This document shows positions 23,196 through 57,173 of a stretch of DNA of 64,000 nt, one piece after another. The notes beneath the pieces are model-generated. The model worked only from the letters and a program-made list of their open reading frames with translations, searched no databases and was not told where the DNA came from. Source of the stretch: Candidatus Micrarchaeota archaeon (lineage in GTDB: Archaea; Micrarchaeota; Micrarchaeia; Micrarchaeales; CABMGC01); the NCBI GenBank assembly GCA_021817125.1, contig JAKAWC010000002.1, forward strand, positions 3,589 to 67,588. The letters run 5' to 3'. The translations under genes were made by a program, and so were the position numbers. Each line of letters starts with the position of its first letter. Positions within the stretch are counted from its first letter, which is position 1.

Positions 23196-23303
23196 ATGGC
23201 AAAGAAACCATCAAATGAAGACGAAGAAGACGATGACTTGGACGACGATGAAGAGATGGACGAAGAGGAAGACACGGAAGAAGACTTCGATGACGAGGAA
23301 TAA
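23196..23303 (+). CDS. 35-aa poly-acidic micro-protein
   Basis: Hand translation: MAKKPSNEDEEDDDLDDDEEMDEEEDTEEDFDDEE, with 24 of 35 residues D/E. A TATA-like ctttaaatac lies ~50 nt upstream and a T-rich tract follows directly after the TAA. Confidence 0.35.
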   Translation: MAKKPSNEDEEDDDLDDDEEMDEEEDTEEDFDDEE

Positions 23304-23357
23304 GTTCTCTCTTTTATTTATTTTTTAATCTCAAGATCCTGGATTCTGTTTCTGTAG

Positions 23358-25979
23358 CTACTTCTTGCTCTTAGGCTTAGCCTTGCCCTTCGCGCTCCCC
23401 TGCGTCTCTTCGTGCACCTTCTCGTCGTTCTCGCTGCCGGCCGCCTCCTCCTTCTCGGGAGTTTCGCCGTCTCGGTGCTCCGTAGGCGCGCCTTCCGCCT
23501 CGTTATCCCGTGCGACCCTAGCGTGGACCTCTCCCTGGCCCCTGATGACGTGCGGTCCCTCTCCGGTGCCCGTCCTTGGGTTCATGATGTTCGGCGTATT
23601 CGCTTCCGGACCTGTGCCCGTGTACTCATAACGCTTGCCCATGGTCTTGTTAAAGTCCGCGTCCGCCTTGGCCCCCAGTTCGATGCCCTTCTGCTTGAGC
23701 ATGCCGCCTCCAATTATACCCACTTTGTCCGCGGCATGACCGACTCCGATGGCTAAGTCCGCGGCAATCGTCTTAAAGACAGGTATGCTCATGCTGCCTG
23801 ACCTCCCTAGCTCCTCCCTCAGGTCCTCGGTTCCCTGGCCGGCGATTGCTTTCGCCGCCGCGGTAGCATATCTTATAGGGCTGCTTATGCCATAAGCGCT
23901 GTCGTGCAGCTTGCCGAAATCCTTGTTGAACTGCTTCTCTATCGCTGCCTGTTCCTTCTGTGCGGTCTTCAGGTCTTTCTCCAGCTGGCTCCTGTATGTC
24001 GCCGCTTCCGCAGTGGTCATATCTCTGACTCCCTTCGTGCCCAGGTCTCCGACCTGCGGCACAGTGCCCTCGCCAAGCTGTCTGAGCGAATCCTTAATCT
24101 GGGTCTCCCTGTCGTAAGCCGACTTCAGTCTCGTAGTCGTATCCTGCGTGAGCAGCTCGAATCTCTTCGCTATCTCGTCAAGATGTTTCTTCCTTTCCTC
24201 GAGAATATTCCTATCGGACTGCTGCCCTGCCTGTACATATGGGCTTACCTTCTCTGCCTGTTCCCTCTCTTTTGGCGCAGCCTTCGCCTCCTTACTGTAA
24301 TCATTCGCAAGCTGTTTGACGTTTTCTGCGCTCTTGGCTCTGGTGCGCTCCTTTCTTAGTTCTTTCGAAGCGCTTGCGACGGACGAAGTGCCATCGACAA
24401 TCTCCTGTGCGCGCTTTGCCGCCTCTCCCTTAAGACCCATGGAGGTGATTACGTCCTTCATATTCTTCCGGCCTGCTATAACATCCTCGGCAAGCGTCTT
24501 CGCCGTGCCAGTCAGTCCAGTGCTGCTTCCTAGTGTCTTTGCGGTACGGATCGCTTCCACATCCCTAAGGTCCTTCACGCTGCCGCCTACCCTGTCCTCA
24601 ACTCTCTTCGTGGCTTCATCCAGCTTCTGCTTAGCCTTGGCTACTGGTTCTAGCATACCTGGTCTCGTAAGGCTGTCTTTTAACTCATCGCTGGGCCTTG
24701 CAACCCGCTTCCCGCCAGGTTTCGAGGACTTGTTCTTATCGCCCGCTGTCACGTTCGTGACGCCCTCTGTCTCTATTCTCTTCCCCTGCCCTTCACGCAC
24801 CGGCCTGGTCGCCGGACCCGCGCTTCCCAGTAGTATATCGAGCCTCTTCCTCTCAGCCTCGAGCCTCAGTCCCGGTGTTCCGCTAATCGGCGACCCGCCT
24901 GCCACCTGTGAGTAGCCGATGACTTTGGTCCTTCTCCCGAAGACAGTCTTTTGTGTAACATCATGCACCGCGAACGTCTTGCCTTGCGCATCTTTAATCT
25001 CACGCGGCGCCCTCCTCTTCGCCTGGTTGGTCTGGTATCCTGCCCTCGCCTCCGCTCTGGCCTGTGCCCCTCCCTGATAACCCTTGAATGCGACCAATCC
25101 GGGGACAGCTAACATAAGTGCTGACCTAGGGCCGTACTTGATTCCGGCTTTGGCCCCCTTGATCGCCAGAGGTATCGGCGCAAAAGCCACCCTCTTGGCT
25201 ACGGTGCTTGCCCTGTTGGCTATCCGCCCGCGAAGCGTTCCCTGATCGAACCTTGTCACCGGAGTTGTCTTGTGCTCGGCCACCCTGTCGATTGCCACTC
25301 CGGCCCTGCTTCCCGCTCTCCCCACGGCCAGGCGTGCATTCCTCATCTTGACCCTCGCGTTCTGGAGGTTGAATGCGACCGCCCTGGTAGACCTTTTGAA
25401 TCCGCCGCCTGCACGGCTTGCCGATGGCAGGTTGCCAACGGGTGACCCCTTCCTCAGCTGCGTCGAGGTGACCTTGCCTACAGGGGCGAGCCCGCCGAAC
25501 TTGCCTCCGGGGGCTGCTCTAGGCGCCGGGATAGGCCTGCCCCTCATGCCGACACCTGTGCCGGCAGATCCGAGTACACCGGCAGGCCTCCCTGCCGCTC
25601 CCCTGATCCTCGACCATAAGACGTTCCTCTCCGCTCCCCTTCCGGCCTTTATGAGGCTCCTTCTCGGTGACAGCGACCTGAGCCCCCCTGACCTTGCCAG
25701 CTTTACGCCAGCGGCTATCTGCCCACCCGTCCTGGACAGCTGGAACGGTCCTGCCGTAGCTATCTTCCCGACGTTCTTCTTTGCGAGCGATCCCCTTCCG
25801 GCAGCGCTGCCGAACCCGGCAAGAGTGGCTATGCCGAACAGGTTGAAAAGGCTGTAGCCCCGCATCGATCCCGCGGCCGCGGCTACAAGGATGAAGATTA
25901 TGATGAGAGGGATGAGCGCGTCTATTGCTCCCAGTGAGAGAAGAATCGCAACGAGTGTAACTCCCACTATCAAAGGCAT
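23358..25979 (-). CDS. 873-aa membrane-anchored, hyper-basic, low-complexity/coiled-coil protein of unknown function
   Basis: The N-terminal ~60 aa form 2-3 TM helices. About 330 aa rich in R/G/A/K follow (e.g. RGAAGRPAGVLGSAGTGVGMRGRPIPAPRAAPGGKFGG). Next come K/E/A-rich coiled-coil-like segments, and the protein ends in a charged tail (...KGKAKPKSKK). No enzymatic motif was recognised. Confidence 0.7.
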   Translation of the reverse strand: MPLIVGVTLVAILLSLGAIDALIPLIIIFILVAAAAGSMRGYSLFNLFGIATLAGFGSAAGRGSLAKKNVGKIATAGPFQLSRTGGQIAAGVKLARSGGLRSLSPRRSLIKAGRGAERNVLWSRIRGAAGRPAGVLGSAGTGVGMRGRPIPAPRAAPGGKFGGLAPVGKVTSTQLRKGSPVGNLPSASRAGGGFKRSTRAVAFNLQNARVKMRNARLAVGRAGSRAGVAIDRVAEHKTTPVTRFDQGTLRGRIANRASTVAKRVAFAPIPLAIKGAKAGIKYGPRSALMLAVPGLVAFKGYQGGAQARAEARAGYQTNQAKRRAPREIKDAQGKTFAVHDVTQKTVFGRRTKVIGYSQVAGGSPISGTPGLRLEAERKRLDILLGSAGPATRPVREGQGKRIETEGVTNVTAGDKNKSSKPGGKRVARPSDELKDSLTRPGMLEPVAKAKQKLDEATKRVEDRVGGSVKDLRDVEAIRTAKTLGSSTGLTGTAKTLAEDVIAGRKNMKDVITSMGLKGEAAKRAQEIVDGTSSVASASKELRKERTRAKSAENVKQLANDYSKEAKAAPKEREQAEKVSPYVQAGQQSDRNILEERKKHLDEIAKRFELLTQDTTTRLKSAYDRETQIKDSLRQLGEGTVPQVGDLGTKGVRDMTTAEAATYRSQLEKDLKTAQKEQAAIEKQFNKDFGKLHDSAYGISSPIRYATAAAKAIAGQGTEDLREELGRSGSMSIPVFKTIAADLAIGVGHAADKVGIIGGGMLKQKGIELGAKADADFNKTMGKRYEYTGTGPEANTPNIMNPRTGTGEGPHVIRGQGEVHARVARDNEAEGAPTEHRDGETPEKEEAAGSENDEKVHEETQGSAKGKAKPKSKK

Positions 25980-26090
25980 CTATATCGCCCCCTATTCCTA
26001 ATTAAAGATATGGCGTTCCACCTATAAATAGGTATGCATGAATACGTCGAGCTATAGAGGTCAATCCGGAAAGAGGCTATAAATAAGGCA

Positions 26091-29000
26091 TTAATGTGTC
26101 CTATGTGCCCTGCGTCTCTTCCTTCCTGCAGTGAACAGCAGCACCGCAGCGACAGCGGCTATCGCCGCAAGCCCTGCCGCGTCTATGTTTCCGTATCCAA
26201 GTTCGAGCAGGCCTATAGGCGTGCTCAGCGTCGACATGTTGGGTGACCAGGTGTAGTTGACCGCTATGAACTTGTCCGACGCGCCGGAATAGAACGGGTC
26301 TGCCGCGTCGACAAGCGGCGCCTGGCTGACGAGTATCGGCTGCGGAGAGGGCGATCCGTAGTATTCCGCGGTTATCAACGCGGTCCCTATGCCGCATGCG
26401 ACTACGTTCGTGGAGAAGACGCCGTCACTGCTCGTCTTGGCTATGCCTATCAGTCCAATCTGCGGCGTGCATATCCCCGTGCCGTTGCTGTACAGCGGCT
26501 CGCAGAACCAGTTCACCGAGCCTCCGGCCGTGGGGAAGCCCTGCGTGGGCACGCTGCCCGAATTGGGTTGGAACGCCTGCGTGTTGCATTCTGCCCAGAG
26601 CCCGTCGACCGCCTTAGTGACGCCGTAGATATTGCAGTCAGCCGTGGTCGGGCTGAAGAGGCTTTTCGGCGGCGCCATGCAGGTGTCCGGTGTCGCGCCC
26701 GAGTTGAAGAGCGAGTTGTATGCGGTGTTATACTCCACAACGGCGTTATTCGGCTGGAGGTTGCCGGCGTATCCCGGATAACCCCGCCAGACCGGGTTGG
26801 ACTTCGTGCAGTTGACCGGTATGGAGCAGCTCTTGTCTGCCGCACATGCACTCGGGCTTCCGCCGAAAGCGCAGAACTGCGCGTTGGTTATGTTCGCCGG
26901 TATCGGCTGCGCGACGAAGTTCATATCGGTGCCATAGTAAAGGTAGACGTCCCCGTTCGGGAGCGGCGAGAACTTGGTTCCGAAGTCAGACTTGTAGCCC
27001 ACTGTCCCGTCTATGTGGACTGTCGTCTGGTTGGCATTGCTCTCCTGGACGGACGGCTGGACAGTGAGCTGGATCGACGTTATGTTCGCGAGATCCGCGT
27101 CGAGCGGTGCGTATATGGTGTTGTTGAACCTGTCGTTGAATACATATACGAGCCTCTGGTAGCCTAGGGTGTTGGACGTACCTGTGAAGCCGTGGTTGGC
27201 GGGGTTTGCAGTGTTGTACTGGTCCCCGTTGATGAACATGTCCAGGGGGCTGTTGTATATCGTCTCCTTATAGAGGTCGAAGAGGCTGACAAATCCCGGA
27301 AACAGCGCCTGCCATGTCTGCTGGTCTGTCGCGCTTATCTGCCCGTCCCCTATCCCGTTGTTGGCTATAGACGAGGGATATGTCTGGACCACCTGGGCGC
27401 TTACCGATGGGTAAAGGAACAGGTTTGGGTTTCCTGACATGCTCATGCCCGAGATGTTGTAGAAGTTCATTGCCCCTTCAGGTATGGGCACGCCTGCCGT
27501 AGCCGACGTGATCGAGTACACGAGCGAGGTCGGCGCACCGGGCTGCGCATACGCAAGAGGCCCGTTCGAGTACGTCTCCACAGTGTTGCCCGTGACCGTG
27601 AGCACGAGCGGATCGCTCGGCGAGATCCAGGCTGTGTCTCCCTGGAGTATGACATTGACCGTGCCCTGCGCCATCTCGTCTATGGCGCGCTGCGACGGCA
27701 GGAATGTTGTGGACAGGTAGAGCGACGTGAATGCGCTCTCGAAGCCGTTGCCGTTCGGCTGCACTATATACGGTCCAGGTATGGCGCTCGGCGCAATGGT
27801 CTGTGGGAGTATGGGATTCGAGTTGATGTTCTCATAGCCGGGGTTCGCCCCCTGCTTGTATGTGTTGACCTGGTACGTGAACAGCTTTGTGGCGTTGATT
27901 ATGTTCTGCAGGTTCGTCGACGCGCCTGCCGTAAGATTGACATATGCCTCCCCGAGCAACCTGTCGTTCTGTAGGTTGAGCGCTATCTGCGGAGGTATTA
28001 TCGTGCCGAGGTCGGAGATGTTTGCGATGTAGTAGTTAGGCGTGCCGGAGTACTGCAGGTACGTGTCCCCTCCCTCTATTATCGAGGTGAGCCAGTTCGA
28101 GGCGCCGTTCACAATCTGGGAGGTGTAGACCGTCGTAGGCCCGACCTGCTGCAGGTTTGGTGCGGAGCAACTTCCAGGCGAGGACCTGAGGTTGCTCGCA
28201 GTCTGCGTTATCCTGTAGGTGTAGGAGTACGGAATCACTGCGTACCCGCTGACCCTGGCGGAGAGTGTCTCCGGTTGGCCAATGAGGCTTGGCACCGACG
28301 GCGTGGTTATGCCTGTGGCGTTGCTGTAGATTATGTTCGCTATGCCGTTGTATCCTCCGTTGGCGTTCTGTACGCATCCCGTGGAGTTGGTCACGTTGAT
28401 GTCCTGGCACGATGCGTTGACCGAGAAGCTACCGCCTCCAGGATAGCTGGATGAGAAGTATCCCGCAGCCGTGAGCAGCTGTGGGCTGCCCAGGTTCTCT
28501 GCATAAGTGAACGGATCGGATACCGTATAAGCTGGTCCCTCCATGTTGTCCACGGTGGAGAGGTAGTTGCAGGTGGACAACGGGTCTGCGCCTGATGCGG
28601 GGTTGCCGTTGCCCGGCAACGCGTAGGCGCCTGCAGAAGTGTAGCACTGGTACTGCGGAAGGCCGCCGAACTGCTTCGTGTAGTTCTCCAGGGCGTACTT
28701 CGTTATCGCGAAAGTGTCCCACAGGTTGGCGTTCTGCTGTATCTGGTAGCTCCATGTGTCGCTGGAGCCCGGATAGTTGATTATGGGCAGCGATGGGACG
28801 TTCGGCATGAGTATGTCTATGGAGCCGTTGAAGCTGACGCCAAGCGAGACCCCGAAGTAGAGCGGCGTGTAGCCCGCTGCTCCAAGTCCGGCTCCGAACC
28901 AGGCGCCGTTGTTGCATGTGCCCTGCGTTGCTCCTGAAGGATTTGTATTGACCCACGGACCGAGAGCCTGTATCGTTGGCCCGATCGGATAGAATGCCCC

Positions 29001-32000
29001 CGTGTACTTGGCTGCTCCGTTTGTGAGGTCCGCCTTGTCGAGGCATGTGGTCGAGCTTCCGGAGCAGAAGTTTATCGATGAGTAATCGCCCCCTGTCCAG
29101 CCGTTGCCGCTGCTGTCGGTGTAGGGTCCGCAGCTCGTGCCGCACCCCCGGAAGTTGCCTATCTCGCCGTAAGGCGGGTTGTTGGCAGAGCAGCTCGGGT
29201 TGAAGTTGGTCAGCCCCCAGCCCCGCGTGGTCTCAAGCTGGTAGATTCCATCTCCGGGCAAGCAGCCGAAGCCAAGGTTTCCTGCGGCGTTGTTGCCGCT
29301 GCATATTATCGTCACGTTCGCAGCCAGGGGCCAGCCGTACGGCGGGTATACCCCGCCGGGTGTCGGCGAATTTGTGCCTATATCATCGTAGCCCGTAGGG
29401 TTTATCTGCAGGTCTGTGCCGTTCGAGGTGAGCGCCCTGAGCTCGAGTGCGCTGAACCAGACTCCCTGCGTATAAGTGGCTTGCCCTCCTGCGCCCCCGC
29501 CCTGGCTGGGGTCCTGTACGTTGAAGTCGCTTGGCGCCCAGTTGTCGAGAACGTAGAGGTAGCCATTCACATCCGTCAGGCCCAGGGGGTGGTGGTAGCC
29601 TGGGGTGTCCTGCCATAATGTCGTCGATATGCCAGAGCCCTGCAGCGCGCTGACTATGTCGAGGCCAAAGTGATAGAGCCCGCTGTTTTGGAGATACGAT
29701 GTGATGTTTACCGGCGGCGCGACCGAGCTGCTGTATCCGGCAATCTGCTGGCGGTAGGTCAGGTCCACGCTGCCGCCAGAAGTGAGGTTCTTGCCGAACA
29801 TGGTGTAAATAAATCCGGTCTGCGCGCTGGACAGGTAGTCCGTCTGGTTGGCCAGGAAGACAAGGGAGCCGTCCGGAGACGACGTTATCTCCGTGGTGAC
29901 AGGCATGTTGAAGCTTGTGCTTGTGGTGTTCGACCAGAGCCACGTGGTGTTCGCTGCTAGCGTAGGGTTGCCGCTTATCGTGTTGGACACCTTCACCACT
30001 CCGGGGAACGTCTCGGTGGTGCAGCTGGACGGGTTCACGCCCTGCACCGCTCCGGTTATGAAGACGTCTCCGCTGTTGTCCGCAGTTATGTTGAGCGGCG
30101 TAAATGCCGGGGAGTTCGGCGACGTCTGACTGTTCCCCTGCTGGTTCGTGACGCTCCCGCCGCATGCCACCTGCATCATGTGGTTCGCGTGGTTGTAGAG
30201 CGTGTTCTCATAGCTCGCCATCACCCCCTGCGCCCCGGAACCGCTGTTCCCCGGGCCGAGGAGGATGGACCTGGCGACGTAGACCTCCTGGTCTTGCAGA
30301 TTTATCAGGTTGTTGAAGTAACTCTGCCAGTTGCCGTTCCACTGCGCCTGGGAGGTGCAGGATGTGCCGCTGCAGATCGTGCCAGGCTGGTAGCCTGAGG
30401 CGTTGTACTGTCCATGGGGGACGACGCGGAGTATGGTTAGGTAGTAGTAGTTGCCGCCGCTCATGTTGAGGACGAAGATGTAGTCGTTTGATATGGCCGC
30501 GACAGATATCGGGCCTGGGATGTTGGGGTTTACCCAGCCAGGCGTGCCTGCGTTGTTGCCCAGTATGGAGCCAGGGTCCTGCGGCCCGTTGTTGTGGCTG
30601 CATCCCCCGTTGCTGTCTGGCAGGCAGTAGAAAGGCGCGCCCTCGAGCGAGCCCAGGTCGGCGCTCTGCAGCGAGTTGTTGACGTTGACGAAGAGCTTGC
30701 TCGGAAGGTCTATCGGGTACGGGTCTATCGACTGCGAAGGTGTATTGTAGTTCCACGGGCCGAAGAGGTCGTAAGAGTTGTTGAGCGATGCACCGTAAGG
30801 CCCTGGCAGCGAGTAGTTGAGCGTGAAGTATGGTAGGATGTTGGCGTCGAACGTGTTGAACTTGTTGCCCTGCCCGTCGACCACTTCGTTGAATGGTATG
30901 TAACTGTTGTCGACTCCGCTAACCATCGTATTTATGGTGTCGGCGAAAGTGTACGAGCAGCTTGAGGTCGGGTCCGTATACGATACTACGGGTATGTACG
31001 CCTGGGAAGGCACTGTCTGCCGCAGGTCCGCGAACTCCGCGCTCCATGACCATATATCGTGTTGCGCTATCGACGGTATGCCGAAGAAGATGTAGCTCTG
31101 GGTGTGGAAGTTGTTGGCTATCTCGCCGTCAACGCTCGGCGTGAAGGAGATCTCGTTGATCGTGAGCGCGCCGATGTTGCTTATCCCAAAGCTGGGCAGC
31201 GAGACCTGGGGGGAGCTCACTCCATTCCATGATACCTCTGTCTGGTAGTGAATCTGGGAGTCGAGGCTAGACACAGACGACATGCACTGGTCCCCTGCAG
31301 CGTAGGTCGGGGTGGCAGCTCCCGGGTATATATCCGACTGGTCTCTCGGATTCATCACAGGCGCATTCGGCGCAGTGAGGAACCAAGGTGCGTTGGCTAT
31401 GTTGTTATTGTTCACCTGCTCTGCGGGAGAATATGCGTAGCCCGGCGTCGAGCCAGTATATGTGAGCTGGCACCCTGCAGGGTTGTAGCTTGTCACCGTG
31501 CCGAGTCCTGTGTCGAAGATGCACACCGTGGTGCCGCCTATGGAGTTGCATGGCAGCGCCTCTGTCTGATAGTTAACGATGAAGTTGGCCGTGGCGCCAG
31601 AGGACCAGCCGCCCGGAAAGTCTGTCGTCAGCGTGCCGCTGGACAGGCAGCTGCCGCCGGTGCAGCTGAATACAGGGGACTCCTGGTAAAGTTCGTTTAT
31701 CGTGTAAGTGTAGTACGGGGCAGGGACCGACTGGAAAAACATTGGGCTATTGTATGCGAACTGGACGTTCTCGTCGTTCGCCACGAGGAATGTTGCCTGA
31801 CCGCTAGCCACCTGAGAGGCGGTCCACGTCTGGTTATGCGAGCCGACCGTGACCGTGAGCATATTTGCGTTTGCAAGGTTTGAATTGAGCGAGTTGGCTC
31901 CGTTATCGACCACATAGCCGAACTGGAGCGGGTAGATGCCCAGCGCAGTCTCTTGCACCTGCCCGTTTGCGCCACCAGACCCGCCAGGGCAGTTGTAGGT

Positions 32001-33104
32001 GTTGCTGCTGCAGCTGCATCCGCCAAGGCCGAGGTTGCATGTGGTGTAGGTGCCGCTTCCGGCGTAGACGCCCCCTCCAGAGGAATGCGCCCAGCCAGGG
32101 TTTGAGCCTATGCTGTTGAGCACCGCCGACGTCGCGGTGATGGATATTACTCCTCCTCCCCCGCCTCCGCCGTCAACGCAGCCGATAGGAGCCTCGGAGC
32201 CGCAAAGGCTCGTGGACCCGTGGTGCCAGAATGTGCCCTCCCCGCCGCTGCCTCCGATTGCAGCGATATATCCGCCAGGGGCGCCGTTGAACACGGCGTT
32301 TCTAGGATTTGGCGTCACCACCGTTATGTTTATACTTCCTCCTCCGCCTCCGCCTCCGGCAGCCGCGCCGTTGCATCCTGTGGTCGCCCCCTGGCCATCG
32401 TTGCCGTTCGCGGTTATCGGCCCGTTGTTGTAAAAGTTAAGCGCAGTGATGGATACCGCCCCTCCTCCAGCCCCGCCCCCGCATGAGAGCGAGAAGCTTG
32501 GACAGACCGTTCCCGAAGAACTCGCATAGCCCGCGCCTCCGCCTCCGGAGTATGCACCGCCGCCCATGGAGCCTGTCGATATGCAGAAGCCTGAACCTAT
32601 ACCAGATCCACCCCCGCCGCATCCGCTGTTTCCGCCCCAGCTGCACGTAAGGTCGCTTCCCGAGAACCCGCCATTGTTATTGTTGCCCGCCTGCCCGCCG
32701 CCTATCTCCACGTTGGGTCCGTTGCCTCCGTTCCCTCCGTTGCCGCTGCCCGCTCCGCCGCTGCCGCTTCCGCCCTCCCAGCCCCCGGTCCCGGTCGCGG
32801 ATATAGTGCCGCCGTTGGTGAACGTGTCAAGCGCGGTCATCGAGTAACAGTTGCTGTCCTTTCCTGCGCATGTGTAGACCGTGTAGCCCGAAGGTATGTT
32901 TATGTCGTCGTAACAGATGCTGCTCGAGAGCGTATACGAAGCGCTGGGCGGGGTCCAGGTGCCCGGCGTGTATGTCACGCCGCTCGGGCACGATACCACA
33001 GGAAATGTCATCGGGTTCTGATGGATGATTGTGGCCGATGCTGATGCGATAGAACACAGACAGAGGACTCCGAGAGCGAGAAGGATAGTTTGTAGCCTCT
33101 GCAT
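26091..33104 (-). CDS. 2,337-aa secreted giant surface protein (adhesin or S-layer-associated) with a Gly/Cys-rich N-terminal module and a C-terminal TM anchor
   Basis: Signal peptide MQRLQTILLALGVLCLCSIASASA. Residues ~100-380 carry poly-Gly runs with the repeat GGGGGG(S/V)I.IT. The long S/T/N/G/Y-rich body has very many N-x-S/T sequons. The C-terminus is AAGLAAIAAVAAVLLFTAGRKRRRAHRTH. A TATA-like tatataaata lies 48-57 nt upstream. Confidence 0.85.
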   Translation of the reverse strand: MQRLQTILLALGVLCLCSIASASATIIHQNPMTFPVVSCPSGVTYTPGTWTPPSASYTLSSSICYDDINIPSGYTVYTCAGKDSNCYSMTALDTFTNGGTISATGTGGWEGGSGSGGAGSGNGGNGGNGPNVEIGGGQAGNNNNGGFSGSDLTCSWGGNSGCGGGGSGIGSGFCISTGSMGGGAYSGGGGAGYASSSGTVCPSFSLSCGGGAGGGAVSITALNFYNNGPITANGNDGQGATTGCNGAAAGGGGGGGSINITVVTPNPRNAVFNGAPGGYIAAIGGSGGEGTFWHHGSTSLCGSEAPIGCVDGGGGGGGVISITATSAVLNSIGSNPGWAHSSGGGVYAGSGTYTTCNLGLGGCSCSSNTYNCPGGSGGANGQVQETALGIYPLQFGYVVDNGANSLNSNLANANMLTVTVGSHNQTWTASQVASGQATFLVANDENVQFAYNSPMFFQSVPAPYYTYTINELYQESPVFSCTGGSCLSSGTLTTDFPGGWSSGATANFIVNYQTEALPCNSIGGTTVCIFDTGLGTVTSYNPAGCQLTYTGSTPGYAYSPAEQVNNNNIANAPWFLTAPNAPVMNPRDQSDIYPGAATPTYAAGDQCMSSVSSLDSQIHYQTEVSWNGVSSPQVSLPSFGISNIGALTINEISFTPSVDGEIANNFHTQSYIFFGIPSIAQHDIWSWSAEFADLRQTVPSQAYIPVVSYTDPTSSCSYTFADTINTMVSGVDNSYIPFNEVVDGQGNKFNTFDANILPYFTLNYSLPGPYGASLNNSYDLFGPWNYNTPSQSIDPYPIDLPSKLFVNVNNSLQSADLGSLEGAPFYCLPDSNGGCSHNNGPQDPGSILGNNAGTPGWVNPNIPGPISVAAISNDYIFVLNMSGGNYYYLTILRVVPHGQYNASGYQPGTICSGTSCTSQAQWNGNWQSYFNNLINLQDQEVYVARSILLGPGNSGSGAQGVMASYENTLYNHANHMMQVACGGSVTNQQGNSQTSPNSPAFTPLNITADNSGDVFITGAVQGVNPSSCTTETFPGVVKVSNTISGNPTLAANTTWLWSNTTSTSFNMPVTTEITSSPDGSLVFLANQTDYLSSAQTGFIYTMFGKNLTSGGSVDLTYRQQIAGYSSSVAPPVNITSYLQNSGLYHFGLDIVSALQGSGISTTLWQDTPGYHHPLGLTDVNGYLYVLDNWAPSDFNVQDPSQGGGAGGQATYTQGVWFSALELRALTSNGTDLQINPTGYDDIGTNSPTPGGVYPPYGWPLAANVTIICSGNNAAGNLGFGCLPGDGIYQLETTRGWGLTNFNPSCSANNPPYGEIGNFRGCGTSCGPYTDSSGNGWTGGDYSSINFCSGSSTTCLDKADLTNGAAKYTGAFYPIGPTIQALGPWVNTNPSGATQGTCNNGAWFGAGLGAAGYTPLYFGVSLGVSFNGSIDILMPNVPSLPIINYPGSSDTWSYQIQQNANLWDTFAITKYALENYTKQFGGLPQYQCYTSAGAYALPGNGNPASGADPLSTCNYLSTVDNMEGPAYTVSDPFTYAENLGSPQLLTAAGYFSSSYPGGGSFSVNASCQDINVTNSTGCVQNANGGYNGIANIIYSNATGITTPSVPSLIGQPETLSARVSGYAVIPYSYTYRITQTASNLRSSPGSCSAPNLQQVGPTTVYTSQIVNGASNWLTSIIEGGDTYLQYSGTPNYYIANISDLGTIIPPQIALNLQNDRLLGEAYVNLTAGASTNLQNIINATKLFTYQVNTYKQGANPGYENINSNPILPQTIAPSAIPGPYIVQPNGNGFESAFTSLYLSTTFLPSQRAIDEMAQGTVNVILQGDTAWISPSDPLVLTVTGNTVETYSNGPLAYAQPGAPTSLVYSITSATAGVPIPEGAMNFYNISGMSMSGNPNLFLYPSVSAQVVQTYPSSIANNGIGDGQISATDQQTWQALFPGFVSLFDLYKETIYNSPLDMFINGDQYNTANPANHGFTGTSNTLGYQRLVYVFNDRFNNTIYAPLDADLANITSIQLTVQPSVQESNANQTTVHIDGTVGYKSDFGTKFSPLPNGDVYLYYGTDMNFVAQPIPANITNAQFCAFGGSPSACAADKSCSIPVNCTKSNPVWRGYPGYAGNLQPNNAVVEYNTAYNSLFNSGATPDTCMAPPKSLFSPTTADCNIYGVTKAVDGLWAECNTQAFQPNSGSVPTQGFPTAGGSVNWFCEPLYSNGTGICTPQIGLIGIAKTSSDGVFSTNVVACGIGTALITAEYYGSPSPQPILVSQAPLVDAADPFYSGASDKFIAVNYTWSPNMSTLSTPIGLLELGYGNIDAAGLAAIAAVAAVLLFTAGRKRRRAHRTH

Positions 33105-33161
33105 GATTCTGCCTCGAGTAACACCCGCAGATAGCTATTATGTTACTTACGTATATAAATA

Positions 33162-33320
33162 TTACGACGGACGCAGCCTGCCCCTCCGCGCCTCTTCCGA
33201 CCTGCGCGCGACTGCCAGGTTGCAGCTGCTGTGCGTGGAGCACCAGGCGTGGCACTCGCCGGCGTCGCTCGCATTGCGGTAGTGCAGCCCGCAGATGCTG
33301 CAGGAGTGCATCGCAGCCAT
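33162..33320 (-). CDS. 52-aa Cys-rich (zinc-binding-like) micro-protein directly upstream of the giant gene
   Basis: Hand translation: MAAMHSCSICGLHYRNASDAGECHAWCSTHSSCNLAVARRSEEARRGRLRPS, with a C-x2-C-x12-C-x3-C-x5-C pattern. It is below the ORF-track cut-off, and no clear promoter was found. Confidence 0.3.
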   Translation of the reverse strand: MAAMHSCSICGLHYRNASDAGECHAWCSTHSSCNLAVARRSEEARRGRLRPS

Positions 33321-33454
33321 GAACATCCTTGGAAGAGAACCTTCTTCTTACTTCCGCCGCATCTCCGCGCGCGTTCGTCTCCCGTCTAATATCCGACGGA
33401 GGGTATGGATAACTTTAAAAAGCTTGTGGTCGAGTGTTAATGTTAGTGATATAA

Positions 33455-33820
33455 ATGGCGACAAAGAAAAATTCGTCCATGACTATGGGTGGCGCCCTAG
33501 TATTTCTAGGGGCTTTGATCTACCTGTACGTCGCATATGGCGCATACAATGCGGGCACCGGTCCGTGGCTGTCAGCAGCAACGTTCCTTGGACCCTTTGC
33601 GGCAGCATTCGCAATCTTCAGCGCAGTCTCCCTGTTCTTCCTCGGAATGCAGGGAATGGCAGGCACATGGTCCGATAACACAAGAAAGAACATTGTCTGG
33701 AAGTTCGTGATGTGGGGCGCGATAACGTTCCTCATCTGGACGGCAGGCGGTGCGTACTTTACTTGGGTGGTCGTGGCCCTGGTGCTGACATATCTCGGCG
33801 CTGCATGGGCTGGAATGTAA
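33455..33820 (+). CDS. small four-TM membrane protein
   Basis: Four hydrophobic helices (e.g. GGALVFLGALIYLYVAY, FLGPFAAAFAIFSAVSLFFLG). A TATA-like aactttaaaaagc lies ~35-45 nt upstream. Confidence 0.6.
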   Translation: MATKKNSSMTMGGALVFLGALIYLYVAYGAYNAGTGPWLSAATFLGPFAAAFAIFSAVSLFFLGMQGMAGTWSDNTRKNIVWKFVMWGAITFLIWTAGGAYFTWVVVALVLTYLGAAWAGM

Positions 33821-33920: not shown

Positions 33921-36278
33921 TTAGTGCGTAGCGTTGTAGTTGATCTGGAATATCTTCGAGTCCCTGTTCGAGTAGACCAGGCGTGCGGTGGCGTTCCTGT
34001 TGTTCCATATGCAGTTGTAATTGTTGCAGAAGAAGATGAACTTCAGCATGTTGCTGTTGTACAAGCCAGGAGTGAAGAGGTACGCCTCGGTTACGTTCAC
34101 CGGAAGCTGCGGGTTCGGCACGCCAGAGTACACTACCAGGAGCATATCTCCGTTGGTCTGGTTGAAAGTGGTCTGCTGCACGACGGAGTAGTTAGAGTTG
34201 TCGGTATCATAGAACGCCACGTACTTGAAAGGGCTTATCCCGTTCTGCGCTATCCCGTAGGCGGATATCTTCTTCGTGCCGTTGACGTTCGTTATCGTGA
34301 GCCTTGCCGCGAGGCCGTTCGGGTTTTGGAACTGGAAGCGCTCTGTCGTCGAGTTGTAGTTGAAACCGACCTGCGGGAACGGTGCGTACGAGTAGTTGAG
34401 CTGCTCCTGGAGCGGCGTCAGGCTCCAATTCGCCTCGATGAGTATGCCCGACGTCTCGAGAAGCCAGTTGTTCCTCACAAGGAGGTACTGCGGGCTTCCA
34501 GTCAGGTTCGAGGTCAGGTAGGCAGGGTCTGGTGACGCGTTGTAGAGCCAGCGCGCGAAGAGCAGCGCCTTCTGCGCGTTCTGCGCGCCGACGCTGTCCA
34601 TCACGCTGGTCCTGTTCGCTACTCCCTCCACGACGCTGCCGTCGGGCCAGAGCGTGAGCACCGTGGCGTTTGCGTGGGTGTTTGCCTGCAGCGTTGCTAG
34701 CGCCACGAAGAGGTATGGGTTTACGTTGTCTGCCTGTACGAGGGTGAATGTGTAGCCATAGTCTATGAACAGGATGTAAGCGAGGAATGCTATCAGTATG
34801 CCGAACGCCACGAACCTGACCGGCACGTTCACGACCGGCAGGCGCGCGTCCTTCAACATGAGTATCACCCAGTATATAGTGTATGCCGACATTATGGCGA
34901 GCGGCACAGCGAGCAGCGAGTTGAACCTTATGGCGTTTATCTGCAGGAACGAAGTCACAACTATATAAGCTATGACGATGAGCATTGTCTCGTCGGCGTC
35001 GAACCTGAAGCGCGCGTTGCCGCCCATGAATCCTGTCCCGCTGTCATAGGTCTTCATGAAGAGGTATATCCCAGACACCATGATTATAAGGAGCCAGAAG
35101 AGGTACTTGAACCCGCTCACATATGTCGAGAGGGCGATAAGGAGGCTCATGGGTGTGGTGAACAGTGTCACCCCGAAGGATGCAAAGAGAAAGCCGAACG
35201 AAGGGGGCTGCAGCTCCTGGATCGTCGACGAGAAACTATTCGTTATTATAAAGCCGTTGGCCACGAAAACGTCGTAGATGAAACCGGGGGCGATGATGTA
35301 GAGTGCGATGCTGGCCACAGCCACCCCCGCCACGAGTACTCCCAGCCTATATGCTGCTGTAGGCATTCTCAGGATAGTGGGTAGCACTTTAGCAGCGTAC
35401 CATCCGACAAGCATGAACACGAGTATGATCCCGAAGTCAAGGCCGGTGAAGACCTGCGGGTACATAAAACCGAGGAGGATGTATGCGTTGACCAGGATGT
35501 ACCAGACCGCGAGCGCGGCCAGCATGTATTTTCCTTCGTCGACAAGGTTCTTGTTGTCGAGGACGAACCCGAATCCGACTATGAATATGAAGGCGAGCGC
35601 GTATACCGCGACAGCGAAAGCGCCTCCTGAGAATGTGAGATCACAGAGGCTCAGGAGGAAGCCCGACGCCACCGCAAGCGCAACCTTCCTGCTCTGGGGC
35701 TTCTCCCTGAAGGCCATAAGTATGATGATGAGTGCGCCGAGAAGGAACGCCGGGGCGAATCCGTCTCCCCTATACACCCCTCCGCTGGTCCTGGCAGCGT
35801 CGCCCATGCTGAGCGCGAGAAGTGCCATGACCAGGAGTCCGAACATGCGGTCCTTGCTAATCCCGCGGGAGAGATAGTATGCGCCTATAACGTCGAGGAT
35901 GCCGAAGAGTATCGGCACAAGACGCATCACATCATAGTAGCTTATTCCAGCGAACCGCAGGAAGAAGTACGGGATCAGCGTGACCCAGTAGAGCCCGAAA
36001 GGCTCGGTCACCAGCGCGTGCTGTGGCCAGCCAGATATGTTGAGTATATGCGGTATGGAGAAGCCCTGATTGACTGCCTGCCTTATGACCGAGAAGTGAT
36101 AGAAGCCGTCGGGCTCGTAGAAGCCGTAGTACTTCAGGATGGGCACCCTGAAGTATATGGTCAGTGCTATGATAACGATAGTGAGAAGGATGAATATCGC
36201 CCCATATGGCAGCCCCTTCTTCACGCCCGAAGTAGTTGCAGCAACTTGCTCGCTCAATGCATCACAATCAGTAAACAT
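33921..36278 (-). CDS. aglB: archaeal oligosaccharyltransferase AglB (STT3 family) with a divergent WWDYG motif
   Basis: A 13-TM-like N-terminal region with YEPDGFYHF in the first loop (DxD-type), TIQE (the TIxE motif of loop EL5), and LWPDGS at aa 543-548 in place of WWDYG, followed by a soluble C-terminal domain. Confidence 0.8.
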   Translation of the reverse strand: MFTDCDALSEQVAATTSGVKKGLPYGAIFILLTIVIIALTIYFRVPILKYYGFYEPDGFYHFSVIRQAVNQGFSIPHILNISGWPQHALVTEPFGLYWVTLIPYFFLRFAGISYYDVMRLVPILFGILDVIGAYYLSRGISKDRMFGLLVMALLALSMGDAARTSGGVYRGDGFAPAFLLGALIIILMAFREKPQSRKVALAVASGFLLSLCDLTFSGGAFAVAVYALAFIFIVGFGFVLDNKNLVDEGKYMLAALAVWYILVNAYILLGFMYPQVFTGLDFGIILVFMLVGWYAAKVLPTILRMPTAAYRLGVLVAGVAVASIALYIIAPGFIYDVFVANGFIITNSFSSTIQELQPPSFGFLFASFGVTLFTTPMSLLIALSTYVSGFKYLFWLLIIMVSGIYLFMKTYDSGTGFMGGNARFRFDADETMLIVIAYIVVTSFLQINAIRFNSLLAVPLAIMSAYTIYWVILMLKDARLPVVNVPVRFVAFGILIAFLAYILFIDYGYTFTLVQADNVNPYLFVALATLQANTHANATVLTLWPDGSVVEGVANRTSVMDSVGAQNAQKALLFARWLYNASPDPAYLTSNLTGSPQYLLVRNNWLLETSGILIEANWSLTPLQEQLNYSYAPFPQVGFNYNSTTERFQFQNPNGLAARLTITNVNGTKKISAYGIAQNGISPFKYVAFYDTDNSNYSVVQQTTFNQTNGDMLLVVYSGVPNPQLPVNVTEAYLFTPGLYNSNMLKFIFFCNNYNCIWNNRNATARLVYSNRDSKIFQINYNATH

Positions 36279-36953: not shown

Positions 36954-39900
36954 ATGAAAAGTCTAAACGCAAAAAGGATAGCTGCCCTTGCAGCTAGTTT
37001 GGTAATGGGTCTTGCATTCGCAGGACCTGTAGTGGCGACCGCATCGGGAGTGACGATCGGTAACGGGTTCTCAGTGATAAATAGCGCTGGAACTCCAACA
37101 GTCCAGATAGTTGTGGGATCTCAGGCACAACCTAGCGACGGCGTAGTTGCGGCAAACATTGCTGCAGTTATCGGCAACCTCGCATATGTGTCCTCAAAGA
37201 TAACCGCAACGGTCAACGGACTGGGAGCGGTAACGTGCGCAGTCACGACCCCAACATGCACGCTGTCAAACCAGCAGGTATGGCTTGGAGTAAAGGGACT
37301 CAGCGCGCCAACAGGATCTTATGCAATTAAGACCTTGATAGGCTCGGTGATGAACGGCGGAGTACTTAACTATAATACATTATCTAACACCAAGGCCGTG
37401 ATATCTGGTTCAAGCCAGTACACGTACCCAGAGGGAAACTCTCCGTACCCTGTGACCTCATCGCCTGAGATGACCTCGGCGTTCGCAGGAATAGGCTCGA
37501 TATCCATACCTGGCCCTGTATCTGCAACGACGAACGGAGGCGGCTTCACAGGAAAGGCGTTCACGCAGAGCGGCTTCGACAACGTAGTCGAGCTCTCGAC
37601 AACGCAGATCCCAAGCCTGCTCTCTGCATCGGGCCAATACTCAGAGTCTGAGTACCTATGGCTTATGGGCTTCCCAGTCTATAACCAGCAGACGAACGTC
37701 AGCAACTTCCAGCTGCTCGACGGAAACGGCGCATACCAGGTCGTCTTCGGAAAGCCGATCTCGATCTTCACCTCAGCTGCAAACGCTGCGGCGAAGGCGT
37801 ACAACCACGCCGGCTTCAGGTTGCTAGGGACGAACTGGACCATCTACAACGTAACGCTGCCTAATGTGAATGCACCATCAAGCGGCAACTTCGTGGTAGG
37901 AACGACTTCGAGCGAAGGAACACTGCAGCTCGCACAGTCGCAGGTGCCATTGACCCTGCTCTACGTAGGACAGAACATGACCGCAGGCCCTCTTACAATC
38001 GCACTGCAGGACTTGACATACCCTAACCAGTCTGGAGCATCCAAGGCTGTCATAGGAGTATACAAGAACGGTGTTCTGACCAACGAGTCGACAATCTCGC
38101 CTCTTGGCACGGCAACGATCAACGCGTCTGGCACGACCGCATACATCTATGTGTCCGCGACAACGCCTGGTCTGTACGCCAGCCAGAGATGGGCAAAGAT
38201 CCAGGTCTTCAGCAACATCTTCAACGTGACGAACGGGCAGAAGTTCGGAAGCTCGAACCCTAACTGGCTGACATCGATAAGATGGTCAACGAACCAGTCG
38301 ACAGGAGTATCGGGAACGCTTTCCGGCACTGAGGCGACGAACGCAGTCCTCGAGGGCATAGTAATATATAGCAACCTCTCGAAGGCATACTCGCTGACAC
38401 CAGGTCAGTCATTGGGCTTCATACAGAACCCACTGGCGTTCAACCTGACGTTCTCTGGTGACGCACTCGGCACGCCAAGCGCAACGAACTCGAACTTCGA
38501 CGCACAGACGTTCTCGTCAACAACCGCAACAGGAGGGTCGGACTACACGTACGGCAACCCTAACGGCGACACGACAGCGAACCCTGGAGCTCAGACGTTC
38601 TCCACAGGCCTGATAGCATCTGTCTCGGCAGCTGCAAACGCGGTCAACGCGACGGTGGTAACCGAGCCCGTGAACCTGTTCACAGTGCAGAGCTCGCTGC
38701 CTACGGCGTTCCAGATAACTTCGCACACTGGAATCTTCCCATCGCCAAGCACGAATCAGCAGAAGGTCCTATACAACCTCGACGGCTATTCGTATGTGCC
38801 AAACAACGTATTGGACGGCCCTGGATCGGCAAACATACTAACGTATGCGCCTAACAACTACGGTGTCGTGTTGCAGATACACAACAACGGAGTGGACGGG
38901 AACTACGTCACGAACAACAACCAGTTGACGGTCTCGATAAGCGGCTCAAAGTGGACCTCAGGCCAGGGAACCGCATCGGTATCGGGATTCGGATTCAACC
39001 CGACCAACTCGATTGGGACAGCCACAATTCCGGTAAACGTGATACAGCAAGGCATGCTGATGAAGAACGTGACCAACGTGAACGTCGGCTACCCTCTTCC
39101 AGCACCTGGTGTAACAGTATACGTCTACGACACCGCGAACGTCTTCGCGTTCAACGCGACAAGCGGTGCAAACTCGATACTGATGGGAACACTGTCGTAC
39201 TATGGCCCAACGCTGTTGTACTCCGTACCTCAGTACAACTACTGGCAGGCGCCTAACGCGCTGACAGCGAACGTTGTATACACCGAGTCTGGCTACACGC
39301 AGGCATACACCCTCAAGAGTGGCTCAACCACGCCGGGCGTGGCGAGAGAGCAGTACTGGTCGTATGTGATCCCAGAGATCGCTGTACCTCAGACCGGCAC
39401 CACAGACGCGAACATGACTATCGGATTGACGAACCAGTCAACCTCGAACGTCGGCTCAACGCCTGAGTACTGGCTGAACCAGACCAGCGGCAACAACAAC
39501 AAGCTGATCTACACCTCGTACCAGGGAACTGCAACGCAGGCTGTACAGGGCTTCAGGACAGAGCGTGGATCTGGCGTCGGCCCAATAACGTCGACATCAG
39601 TGACATACTACCTGGCTCAGTCCATCGACACCCTGAACTTCCTGGTCGGACCTGCAAAGCAGGGCTCGCTGGCGACGACACAGACCGTCGGACCGTTCAA
39701 GATCGGACAGACATACAACAACATAACGATCGAGAACGTGAGCGCAACATGCGCGTTCGCAGCAACAAGCTGCAAGGTCTCCGGCCTGACGAACGTCACG
39801 GCAACGCCAAGCGCGACTACGGCGATAACTGCAGTGCCATTGAACACTGCGGCAACGCCTATAGCCGTACTGGACTCGAATGCAAGCTCGACGCAGAACC

Positions 39901-40112
39901 TCATAGTGGTAGGAAGCAAGTTCGTGAACTCGGTTGCAGCGACAATATTCGCAAACCAACCGACGTTCGCAAGCGGCTTCAACACGGGTTCCGTAGTCGT
40001 GCAGCAGTTCGGAAACCAGTACCTCGTAGCAGGATGGACCGCCGCACAGACAGTCTCGGCAGGAAACCAGTTCATCCAGCAGCTATTGAGCGCGGCAGCG
40101 ACCTCTACATAG
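36954..40112 (+). CDS. S-layer protein (1,052 aa)
   Basis: Signal peptide (RIAALAASLVMGLAFAGPVVATASG). An N-terminal segment, VQIVVGSQAQPSDGVVAANIAAVIGNLA, and a C-terminal segment, LIVVGSKFVNSVAA...YLVAGWTAAQTVSAGNQFIQ, both match the euryarchaeal S-layer protein pattern (vVGs.Aa..DvvaAanIa / VAG..A.dT..A). S/T/N/G-rich with many sequons. A strong terminator-like structure follows. Confidence 0.8.
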   Translation: MKSLNAKRIAALAASLVMGLAFAGPVVATASGVTIGNGFSVINSAGTPTVQIVVGSQAQPSDGVVAANIAAVIGNLAYVSSKITATVNGLGAVTCAVTTPTCTLSNQQVWLGVKGLSAPTGSYAIKTLIGSVMNGGVLNYNTLSNTKAVISGSSQYTYPEGNSPYPVTSSPEMTSAFAGIGSISIPGPVSATTNGGGFTGKAFTQSGFDNVVELSTTQIPSLLSASGQYSESEYLWLMGFPVYNQQTNVSNFQLLDGNGAYQVVFGKPISIFTSAANAAAKAYNHAGFRLLGTNWTIYNVTLPNVNAPSSGNFVVGTTSSEGTLQLAQSQVPLTLLYVGQNMTAGPLTIALQDLTYPNQSGASKAVIGVYKNGVLTNESTISPLGTATINASGTTAYIYVSATTPGLYASQRWAKIQVFSNIFNVTNGQKFGSSNPNWLTSIRWSTNQSTGVSGTLSGTEATNAVLEGIVIYSNLSKAYSLTPGQSLGFIQNPLAFNLTFSGDALGTPSATNSNFDAQTFSSTTATGGSDYTYGNPNGDTTANPGAQTFSTGLIASVSAAANAVNATVVTEPVNLFTVQSSLPTAFQITSHTGIFPSPSTNQQKVLYNLDGYSYVPNNVLDGPGSANILTYAPNNYGVVLQIHNNGVDGNYVTNNNQLTVSISGSKWTSGQGTASVSGFGFNPTNSIGTATIPVNVIQQGMLMKNVTNVNVGYPLPAPGVTVYVYDTANVFAFNATSGANSILMGTLSYYGPTLLYSVPQYNYWQAPNALTANVVYTESGYTQAYTLKSGSTTPGVAREQYWSYVIPEIAVPQTGTTDANMTIGLTNQSTSNVGSTPEYWLNQTSGNNNKLIYTSYQGTATQAVQGFRTERGSGVGPITSTSVTYYLAQSIDTLNFLVGPAKQGSLATTQTVGPFKIGQTYNNITIENVSATCAFAATSCKVSGLTNVTATPSATTAITAVPLNTAATPIAVLDSNASSTQNLIVVGSKFVNSVAATIFANQPTFASGFNTGSVVVQQFGNQYLVAGWTAAQTVSAGNQFIQQLLSAAATST

Positions 40113-53582: not shown

Positions 53583-53688
53583 GGGCTGAGCCCATATTCC
53601 TCGCCCTGCCGAGCGGCAGTCCCATTCAGATCTCCGTCTACCACACGCTTTTTATTCCTTGATATTGAAAGGCTATCAGCGTGCCAGC

Positions 53689-56437: not shown

Positions 56438-56455
56438 CATATTCAGGATGCTAAC

Positions 56456-57169: not shown

Positions 57170-57173
57170 GTCA

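Follow-up and report, generated by a model that had tools for sequence, protein, structure and literature searches.

The subject of this report is a gene module within a 64,000-nucleotide stretch of chromosomal DNA (the window) from a Micrarchaeota (DPANN) archaeon, carried on the 81-kb metagenome contig ena:ERZ27237313:k141_11793. At the core of the module are two co-oriented minus-strand genes, 111 bp apart, as had been reported in a preliminary description of this DNA. The first encodes a giant surface protein of 2337 amino acids (aa; 26091..33104), predicted to be exported and to be anchored in the membrane at its C-terminus; the second encodes a partner of 873 aa (23358..25979), with an N-terminal membrane anchor and a long polybasic tail that is probably cytoplasmic. 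A gene for a poly-acidic micro-protein of 35 aa (23196..23303, plus strand) converges on the pair. The flanks of the module are occupied by housekeeping genes (RNase Z, RqcH, GGGP synthase, TruD, primase, eRF1, SMC and ribosomal proteins), and its GC content (0.58-0.60, against 0.52-0.58 in the surroundings) is not atypical.

Neither the giant nor the partner had a match in Pfam, NCBIfam, PHROGs, PADLOC or PDB sequences, which agrees with the earlier statement that no catalytic or known adhesin domain could be recognized in either protein. Searches of sequence collections with the module's parts returned almost exclusively contigs titled Micrarchaeota, one of which is the complete Ca. Micrarchaeum sp. 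A_DKE genome; the module is undescribed in the above libraries and appears to be specific to the Micrarchaeota lineage. Related loci were collected at one genome per species, giving 25 partner loci, 80 loci of an ATPase cluster described below, and 80 giant loci fetched out of at least 82 genome matches, and were mapped with our own open reading frame (ORF) caller, BLAST and hidden Markov models (HMMs). The existence, composition, order and conservation of the parts were observed directly in these loci. A few contigs (L014, L031/L176, L149, L093 and L089) are titled Saccharimonadales, Marsarchaeota, Methanothrix or "bacterium", yet have Micrarchaeota-type synteny of giant and partner or of the ATPase cluster, and are probably mis-binned.

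Results

The partner is found immediately 3′ of the giant, on the same strand, in 40 loci, with a median gap of 38 nt (range −38 to 208), and in a few further loci one or two genes separate them. The usual 38-nt spacing looks operonic. The preliminary description had asked whether orthologues of the partner always follow a giant, and the 40 pairs agree with that expectation; in many genomes, however, the partner lies within a cluster of px and ATPase genes, and the system is therefore larger than the pair. This second context is a conserved, phylum-wide cluster seen in related loci and absent from the window. Its gene order is a 245-aa membrane protein, px1-px6, d280, d273, an ATPase of ~500 aa, d101, d129, d253 and d815, usually with TopoVI-B alongside; px1-px6 are six polytopic membrane paralogues, whose N-termini resemble signal peptides. 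The ATPase belongs to the HerA/FtsK/VirB4 superfamily, matching HerA, VirB4-like (4ag5), TraG P-loop and FtsK models, and is 66-84% identical across at least 129 matches. In a comparison with PADLOC the ATPase gave generic HerA/DndH P-loop matches only, and the giant and partner gave none, so that no defense system was matched. In related loci L036-L115 (e.g., L005 1558-19758), the members of the cluster other than the paralogues and the ATPase include two small transmembrane proteins, a winged-helix protein and a transmembrane protein of ~800 aa.

Most genomes have the cluster without the partner; in a subset the partner is inserted exactly between px6 and d280, and 27 partners were found inside the cluster. 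The placement of the partner was counted in the 20 metagenome-assembled genomes (MAGs) for which both a giant locus and the px6/d280 junction were recovered. It was beside the giant or within one or two genes of it in nine of these, between px6 and d280 in seven, and in both places in none. Two loci bring the neighborhoods together: in L014 the giant, the partner and px1-6 are found side by side, and in L099 the giant directly follows the ATPase cluster. Because the single-copy partner alternates between exactly two neighborhoods, giant, partner and cluster appear to be functionally tied; we consider this comparative evidence strong, and infer from it that the three work together.

Two side observations concern these arrangements. 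The giant of L099 is broken up into six or more ORF fragments in a row, and is either a pseudogene or the product of frameshift errors in a long-read MAG. In the genus Micrarchaeum (L003 1641-7920 and 20784-26036; L016/L146, which are A_DKE), the pair is flanked by two type IV pilus-like gene sets with T2SSE ATPases, T2SSF and small pilin-like proteins, and the poly-acidic ORF is missing there.

The giant has an isoelectric point (pI) of 4.2, just 1.9% K+R, 54 Cys residues and 33 N-x-S/T sequons. It begins with a signal peptide (aa 1-24; 33033..33104, minus strand) of typical appearance (MQRLQTILLALGVLCLCSIASASA), and its start is the same in all full-length homologues. In the public record the gene starts at an internal ATG to give a protein of 2306 aa, which cuts off the signal peptide (first 31 codons, window 33011-33104); the 2337-aa start is favored because of a TATA box (TATTTATATA) 50 nt upstream and because of the N-termini of all homologues. 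At the other end is an anchor (26094..26210, minus strand) consisting of the motif LELGYGNID, a single transmembrane helix of 19 hydrophobic residues, and the predicted cytoplasmic tail RKRRRAHRTH; no other ORF in the window has a C-terminal transmembrane helix with a basic tail. The earlier proposal of an exported, N-glycosylated and anchored protein thus holds for the signal peptide, the C-terminal helix and the tail, but not for sequon enrichment, since shuffled sequences have 38 ± 5 sequons and the observed number does not exceed what composition predicts. A motif of the form [LFIM][SG][YFLM]G[DNSAT][ILV] precedes the helix in 47 of 77 anchored giants and in one of 146 other C-terminally anchored ORFs. 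The S-layer protein of the window does not have it. The idea that the anchor is a general sorting signal was rejected, the motif being specific to giants.

Homologues of the giant number 20 further entries in the protein database in addition to the 80 genome loci, and range from 1.4 to 4 thousand residues, with several common blocks and a well-conserved C-terminal ~400 aa. In the window protein, the best-conserved part is accordingly a C-terminal ectodomain module (aa ~1930-2298; 26211..27317, minus strand), which is 35-37% identical to the L003 and L007 homologues and has invariant Cys, Gly and Pro columns in alignment blocks A2 and A3. Further upstream, a β-strand-rich region (aa ~720-1270; 29295..30947, minus strand), conserved with homologue P0006, is probably a β-propeller of the YVTN/NHL type. 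The top Foldseek matches to the PDB were all β-propellers (YncE, PknD-NHL, Brat-NHL), weak ones (E ~3e-3, template-modeling scores ≤0.3) obtained with a low-confidence model and for the N-terminal half only, the model of the C-terminal half being too poor for a fold search. Repeats such as NGYLYVLDNW agree with these matches; no Pfam propeller repeat was detected in the window giant, and homologue P0016 has a weak SBBP repeat match. The usable parts of the AlphaFold2 models are a small β domain (aa 40-105), moderately confident β strands at aa ~860-1115, and β-sandwich-like segments near the C-terminus with a predicted local distance difference test (pLDDT) value of 60-80.

Between the signal peptide and the conserved blocks is a lineage-specific Gly-rich insert (aa ~100-400; 31905..32807, minus strand) with 26-42% Gly and an AlphaFold confidence below 40. 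The insert is missing in P0014 and other homologues, for which the alignment begins at window aa ~559. P0014 has instead an NlpC/P60 and CHAP insert (aa 710-818), and P0016 a weak lysozyme-like SLT_3 match (aa 516-611); the window giant has no counterpart of these hydrolase inserts. Their presence hints at an ability of the giant family to bring lytic activities to a partner cell. The giant had no match to PF05123, PF05124 or TIGR01564 at E≤0.01, which places it outside the archaeal S-layer families.

The partner is highly basic (pI 10.3; K 9%, R 8%, A 13%, G 12%) and has three parts. The N-terminal anchor (aa 1-60; 25800..25979, minus strand), LSLGAIDALIPLIIIFILVAAAAG-SMRG-YSLFNLFGIATLAGFG, is the sole conserved part of the family, whose consensus is LSLGAIDALIPLIIIFILVAAAAG-xxRG-YSLFNLFGIxTLAGFG. 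Searched against 1.84 billion proteins, a profile of the anchor retrieved 337 representative clusters, 207 of them at E≤1e-10; the matched segment is invariably at residues ~1-76, and the proteins range from fragments to 1137 aa. The anchor is followed by a polybasic low-complexity region with a net charge of ~+50 (aa 61-420; 24720..25799, minus strand) and by a distal mixed-charge region (aa 421-873; 23361..24719, minus strand) that is rich in E, K, A and Q, ends in an acidic stretch, and had no domain match in library searches. The tails of the family do not align, yet all 30 that were examined have a common charge plan of ~300 strongly basic residues followed by neutral to acidic sequence, with pI values of 9.5-11. 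Three relatives (P0041, P0070 and P0134) end in a canonical J-domain with an HPD motif, which would recruit Hsp70 to the membrane anchor, and three family members have LRV repeats; the window partner has no J-domain.

The preliminary description gave the partner two or three transmembrane helices. One helix and a less hydrophobic second segment are more likely, and homologues start ~10 residues later than the window ORF. The N-terminus does not resemble an archaeal type IV pilin, as it is uncharged (xxLSxGAINALIPxxII...) and has no K or R ahead of the Gly. The tail is most likely cytoplasmic because there is no charge before the transmembrane helix and ~+50 after it, and the positive-inside rule is valid in acidophiles too. 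The same placement is indicated by the J-domains, partners of cytoplasmic Hsp70, at the ends of three family tails; by the low sequon density of 0.34 per 100 aa (compared with 1.41 for the giant, 2.0 for the S-layer protein and 4.26 for a 681-aa neighbor); and by an acidic companion that has no signal peptide. The opposite topologies previously proposed for the two proteins are thereby backed, if indirectly. Candidate fusions of giant and partner in L161, L190, L157 and L192 turned out to be just giants, with a C-terminal transmembrane helix that weakly matches the partner HMM.

The acidic companion is the product of the convergent micro-ORF (MAKKPSNEDEEDDDLDDDEEMDEEEDTEEDFDDEE), which has a GGTGA Shine-Dalgarno sequence upstream and a T-rich tract after its stop codon. 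The peptide has a net charge of ~−20 and no signal peptide, and no family model matches it. Both this ORF and a Cys-rich micro-ORF on the other side of the pair are present in public gene calls, and by tblastn neither is conserved. For the acidic ORF, not for the Cys-rich one, that result was overturned by a composition-based scan. In L007, the most closely related locus, the corresponding position is occupied by a convergent ORF of 38 aa (MAKKKDEEDDDEEDEDDEDIEDDFDEESDDDFDDDSEE). When small ORFs with at least 55% D+E were collected from 3.25 Mb of loci and made non-redundant, 32 were found, of which 31 are convergent and within 2.6 kb of a module's 3′ end, 25 of them within 300 nt. Eighteen of the 31 follow a partner, and 13 follow a giant in loci without a downstream partner; the acidic ORF is therefore at the 3′ end of the module irrespective of which gene comes last. 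None of the 27 partners inside the ATPase cluster has one. A Shine-Dalgarno-like GGTG precedes 21 of the 32 acidic ORFs compared with 11% of 19,378 other small ORFs (p 5e-13), and a T5+ tract follows the stop codon in 17 of 32 compared with 4.8% (p 1e-14). Because of this convergent position and these two enrichments, we take the acidic ORF to be a real conserved gene, though one that is invisible to BLAST, and its earlier designation as a component of the module is upheld.

The Cys-rich micro-ORF (33162-33326, minus strand) fared differently. It encodes 54 aa, the 52 aa first reported being obtained only from its second ATG; it directly abuts the TATA box of the giant; and it has no counterpart in ~190 related loci. 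It was dropped as a component of the module.

That TATA-box-like element (33153..33162, minus strand), ~50 nt upstream of the giant's ATG, includes the octamer TATTTATA, which occurs five times in the window compared with 0.53 expected. The copies are at 2655-2662, 26023-26030, 26078-26085, 33154-33161 and 56313-56320; three of these adjoin the genes for giant and partner. The octamer is likely an archaeal promoter box and may be common to co-regulated envelope genes. Two of the copies (26078-26085 and 26023-26030) are in the 111-bp spacer (25980..26090, minus strand), the second of them ~45 nt upstream of the partner's ATG, together with a GGGGG site that resembles a ribosome-binding site.

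The orthologues in A_DKE are Micr_00434 (2010 aa), for the giant, and Micr_00435 (454 aa), for the partner. Both are "hypothetical" in the published A_DKE annotation, with no arCOG, KO, Pfam, TIGRFAM or InterPro assignment, and our literature search found no paper that names either. In the published transcriptome of the A_DKE/host co-culture, they are listed at 0.95 and 2.06 transcripts per million (TPM), respectively; values in the same table are 1.43 for SMC, 1.37 for signal peptidase and 0.33 for KsgA. The A_DKE orthologues are thus transcribed, at a level comparable to those three genes; proteome data on them were not found.

The preliminary description had placed the pair next to aglB and an S-layer locus, and both identifications hold. 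The S-layer gene (36954-40112, plus strand; 1052 aa) matches PF05124 (9e-15) and TIGR01564 (1e-8). The gene upstream of the giant (33921..36278, minus strand) encodes a 785-aa protein that alone has no Pfam match (STT3 not reached), whereas a profile of its nine-member family matches STT3A/STT3B chains with E values of 1e-5 to 3e-4. In the alignment, the EL1 acidic motif of STT3 corresponds to family sequence ("FyEPDGFy" to "HEFDPWFNF"), as does the WWDYG-type catalytic motif ("WPDGsvvEgvAnR" to "WWDYGYQIGGMADR"). By these profile alignments we assign the protein to the AglB/STT3-type oligosaccharyltransferases as a divergent paralogue. At least nine other loci have a homologue of it next to a giant, for example L132, L135, L138, L139 and L141, where it is directly upstream, and L154, L164 and L177, where it is downstream and convergent; several ATPase clusters begin with a related gene.

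Between the AglB paralogue and the giant is a gene for a small membrane protein of 121 aa with four transmembrane segments (33455..33820, plus strand), a possible accessory with a weak link to the module: its sole detected homologue adjoins the giant in L014 (6249-6605; tblastn E 4e-25). Just downstream of the S-layer gene is the gene for the 681-aa protein (40380-42425, plus strand), which has a signal peptide, no Pfam match and the top sequon density in the region, and is possibly a second S-layer-associated glycoprotein. Further glycosylation genes occupy 43027-44574 (minus), 53659-54735 (plus), 56405-57881 (plus) and 12325-13995 (minus), and the kinds of genes in the wider region include a DUF2079 GT-C-like membrane protein, Glycos_transf_4, two GT2 genes, another GT2 and an NDP-sugar epimerase. 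Genes for envelope glycosylation are thus abundant around the module, which therefore lies in a glyco-envelope neighborhood.

Discussion

There are multiple possible scenarios for how the module functions. The one toward which we lean, without great confidence, is that the giant is a host-contact protein, that the partner is an adaptor, that the acidic micro-protein neutralizes the partner's tail, and that all three are functionally coupled to the px/HerA-type ATPase machine. The giant would be exported via its signal peptide, probably N-glycosylated (the divergent AglB paralogue next to it may be the enzyme responsible), and held on the cytoplasmic membrane by its dedicated C-terminal anchor of motif, transmembrane helix and polybasic stub. 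Its large β-rich ectodomain, which probably contains a propeller, would then be displayed within the S-layer or beyond it, where the giant would act as an adhesin or make contact with the host. The partner is predicted to cross the membrane once, by its conserved transmembrane helix, and to leave only a very short N-terminal stretch outside, so that its ~300-residue polybasic disordered region and helical distal region would face the cytoplasm. There, the acidic peptide of ~35 aa would most likely act as a polyelectrolyte chaperone or regulator that binds the polybasic tails and neutralizes them. Because the single-copy partner gene sits either beside the giant or inside the ATPase cluster, the partner could be an adaptor that links the surface giant to an ATP-driven membrane machine, possibly through physical contact of giant and partner at the membrane. 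The whole assembly may serve cell-cell (host) contact and possibly macromolecule transfer. Topology, coupling, peptide role and biological function are here as comparative sequence evidence suggests them.

An extension of this scenario is that the giant, the partner, the acidic micro-protein, the six px paralogues and the ATPase cluster are parts of one unrecognized, phylum-wide Micrarchaeota envelope machine that attaches to a host and carries DNA, lipids or proteins over the contact site. We regard this broader proposal as tentative and rather doubtful.

A number of observations weigh against the scenario toward which we lean. The contact between giant and partner is proposed from gene order, which alone proves no contact. 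In the window, the second spacer box may give the partner its own promoter, such that the two genes would be transcribed separately. Four of the 20 MAGs have the partner in neither place (one of them with a solitary partner), and three loci, L009, L018 and L028, have a solitary partner. The ATPase cluster was not found on the window's contig, and the part of the Krause 2022 supplement that was available to us has no ATPase cluster in the TopoVI-A neighborhood of A_DKE. Among the cluster proteins other than the ATPase, no known family or secretion component was recognized. The acidic ORF accompanies just 31 of 83 modules outside the cluster, and by the criteria used here it is absent from the A_DKE clade. 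The AlphaFold2 models of the two halves of the giant, built from a 21-sequence alignment, have mean pLDDT values of only 36.8 and 42.8. Finally, comparisons of the two anchors are equivocal. HMM scores of giant anchors against the partner anchor have a median of 1.7 bits, versus −0.4 bits for the null, and each score is inside the null range. A degenerate motif, L-S-hydrophobic-G-x-hydrophobic, precedes the transmembrane helix in 45 of 87 giants, 25 of 70 partners and one of 2223 other N-termini, by a pattern that was composed after both families had been seen. The shared motif suggests the same out-to-in orientation and perhaps a common interaction, and is a lead rather than a result.

Several of these observations are what would be expected if giant and partner were neighbors that form no complex, i.e., if the giant were just one among several large adhesin-like or S-layer-associated glycoproteins, the partner an unrelated membrane-tethered cytoplasmic protein (for example a nucleoid or RNA tether or a cytoskeleton-like scaffold), and their adjacency a gene order inherited in genomes that are small and compact. 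Possible separate promoters in the window, partners that stand alone or, in many genomes, in the other cluster, and tails that are unconserved in sequence and look like generic basic low-complexity DNA- or RNA-binding segments are all compatible with this. We nevertheless consider it unlikely, given that the placement of the partner is mutually exclusive (one or the other site in 16 of the 20 MAGs), that the median spacing over the 40 pairs is tight, that giant, partner and cluster are brought together in three independent ways (in L014, in L099 and in type-B clusters with a partner), and that the acidic ORF keeps to the module's end. A different alternative turns the partner around, so that both proteins face outward and form no inside/outside couple; the basic tail would be extracellular and would bind to the host membrane, to glycans or to the acidic S-layer. 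An uncleaved signal anchor could be what the hydrophobic N-terminal region represents, and a basic extracellular binder is conceivable where the giant and the S-layer proteins are acidic; the strong positive charge directly after the helix and its absence before, the J-domains of three relatives, the scarcity of sequons and the conserved acidic companion without a signal peptide make such a topology very improbable. We rejected as scarcely credible the idea that the module is a mobile element or the remnant of a provirus in which the giant would serve for receptor binding or entry. It would account for orphan proteins without families, and HerA/FtsK-type ATPases are also viral packaging enzymes (there is a terminase-like PHROG match), but the module has housekeeping genes on both sides, an ordinary GC content, no integrase among the Pfam annotations of neighboring genes, no PHROG match for giant or partner, and stable phylum-wide synteny that includes TopoVI-B beside the cluster.

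The remaining alternative is a DNA-uptake or conjugation-like system akin to type IV secretion systems (T4SS) or Ced, in which the ATPase would pump DNA, the px proteins form the channel, the basic tail bind nucleic acid, the acidic peptide act as a DNA mimic and the giant adhere. The ATPase's matches to HerA, VirB4-like, TraG and FtsK models are in keeping with this, as is the combination of a histone-H1-like tail with a poly-acidic peptide. There are precedents in chromosomally fixed T4SS of ultra-small epibiotic Patescibacteria (PMC12102498) and in archaeal Ced/Ted DNA import (PMC9905601). The likeness consists of a HerA/VirB4-superfamily ATPase beside multiple polytopic membrane proteins, chromosomally fixed in an ultra-small host-dependent lineage. 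The ATPase superfamily is, however, all that is in common: a search of the 91 cluster proteins for T4SS components gave coiled-coil and winged-helix noise only, with no VirB6/TrbL, VirB2/CedA1, VirD4, relaxase or other T4SS family in them or in L005, and the window has no set of VirB4-type ATPase, VirB6-like, pilin-like and coupling proteins. For a conjugation gene, the ATPase would be unusually well conserved across the phylum, and the cluster is absent from both the window and its contig. A DNA-transfer function of this kind therefore seems quite improbable to us.

The preferred interpretation, a host-contact giant with an adaptor partner, can be compared with several known systems. The giant alone is of a recognized kind, the large surface proteins of DPANN archaea. 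Mia14 encodes very large secreted surface proteins with YVTN/Kelch β-propeller, PKD and CARDB domains, for which a role in cell-cell interaction has been proposed (Golyshina et al. 2017, PMC5498576). Compared by description, they resemble the window giant in phylum, in being exported surface proteins of ~2000 aa, and in the probable propeller. The window giant differs in having no PKD, CARDB or Kelch Pfam match, and the account of the Mia14 proteins is of domain content only, with no anchor motif, basic partner, acidic micro-protein or ATPase-cluster link described. The SPEARE proteins of Nanohaloarchaeota combine serine protease, adhesion and restriction-endonuclease domains; these giant surface-exposed proteins of DPANN episymbionts, which Hamm et al. 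reportedly described in PNAS in 2019, probably mediate host attachment. The window giant has no SPEARE-type Pfam domain, and no sequence similarity was found.

The anchor of the giant is reminiscent of PGF-CTERM/archaeosortase, PEP-CTERM and LPXTG proteins, which likewise end in a short motif, a transmembrane helix and a basic cluster. The C-terminus (...LELGYGNIDAAGLAAIAAVAAVLLFTAGRKRRRAHRTH) has no PGF and no TIGR/NCBIfam match, though, the motif of the giants is L-S-[YFM]-G-[DNS]-[IL] and restricted to them, and no sortase-like gene was identified. Known polyelectrolyte pairs include prothymosin-α/histone H1, acidic histone chaperones and DNA-mimic proteins. The module is similar in that the gene for a small, extremely acidic and probably disordered protein lies beside that for an extremely basic low-complexity region; the likeness is one of composition and position only, there being no homology, and the pair of the giant module is membrane-associated and prokaryotic. 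SlaA and SlaB of Sulfolobales are encoded by adjacent envelope genes for a large glycosylated surface protein and a membrane-anchored protein, both of which are extracellular. Here, by contrast, the second protein is predicted to be cytoplasmic, and a separate bona fide S-layer gene is 4 kb away. For the partner family and the acidic micro-protein, as for their conserved arrangement and the ATPase-cluster link, no counterpart has been described.

It has long been asked how DPANN archaea recognize their hosts, hold on to them and obtain resources from them, and for Micrarchaeota we know of no symbiont-side molecular apparatus for host contact. A cryo-electron tomography study of Micrarchaeon ARM-1 attributed nanotubes to the host and named no symbiont genes. 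The module offers candidates, namely an exposed giant, an unannotated adaptor family of 337 clusters, a polybasic/polyacidic pair and a link to a highly conserved ATPase machine. It also illustrates that public gene calls can truncate the signal peptide of a giant, and that a 35-aa ORF that is invisible to BLAST can be a conserved gene. Because Ca. Micrarchaeum harzensis A_DKE is available in co-culture and transcribes both orthologues, the hypothesis is directly testable. If the proposal of a single machine is true, the module and the ATPase cluster would be a DPANN counterpart of the chromosomal T4SS of Patescibacteria, built from unrelated parts.

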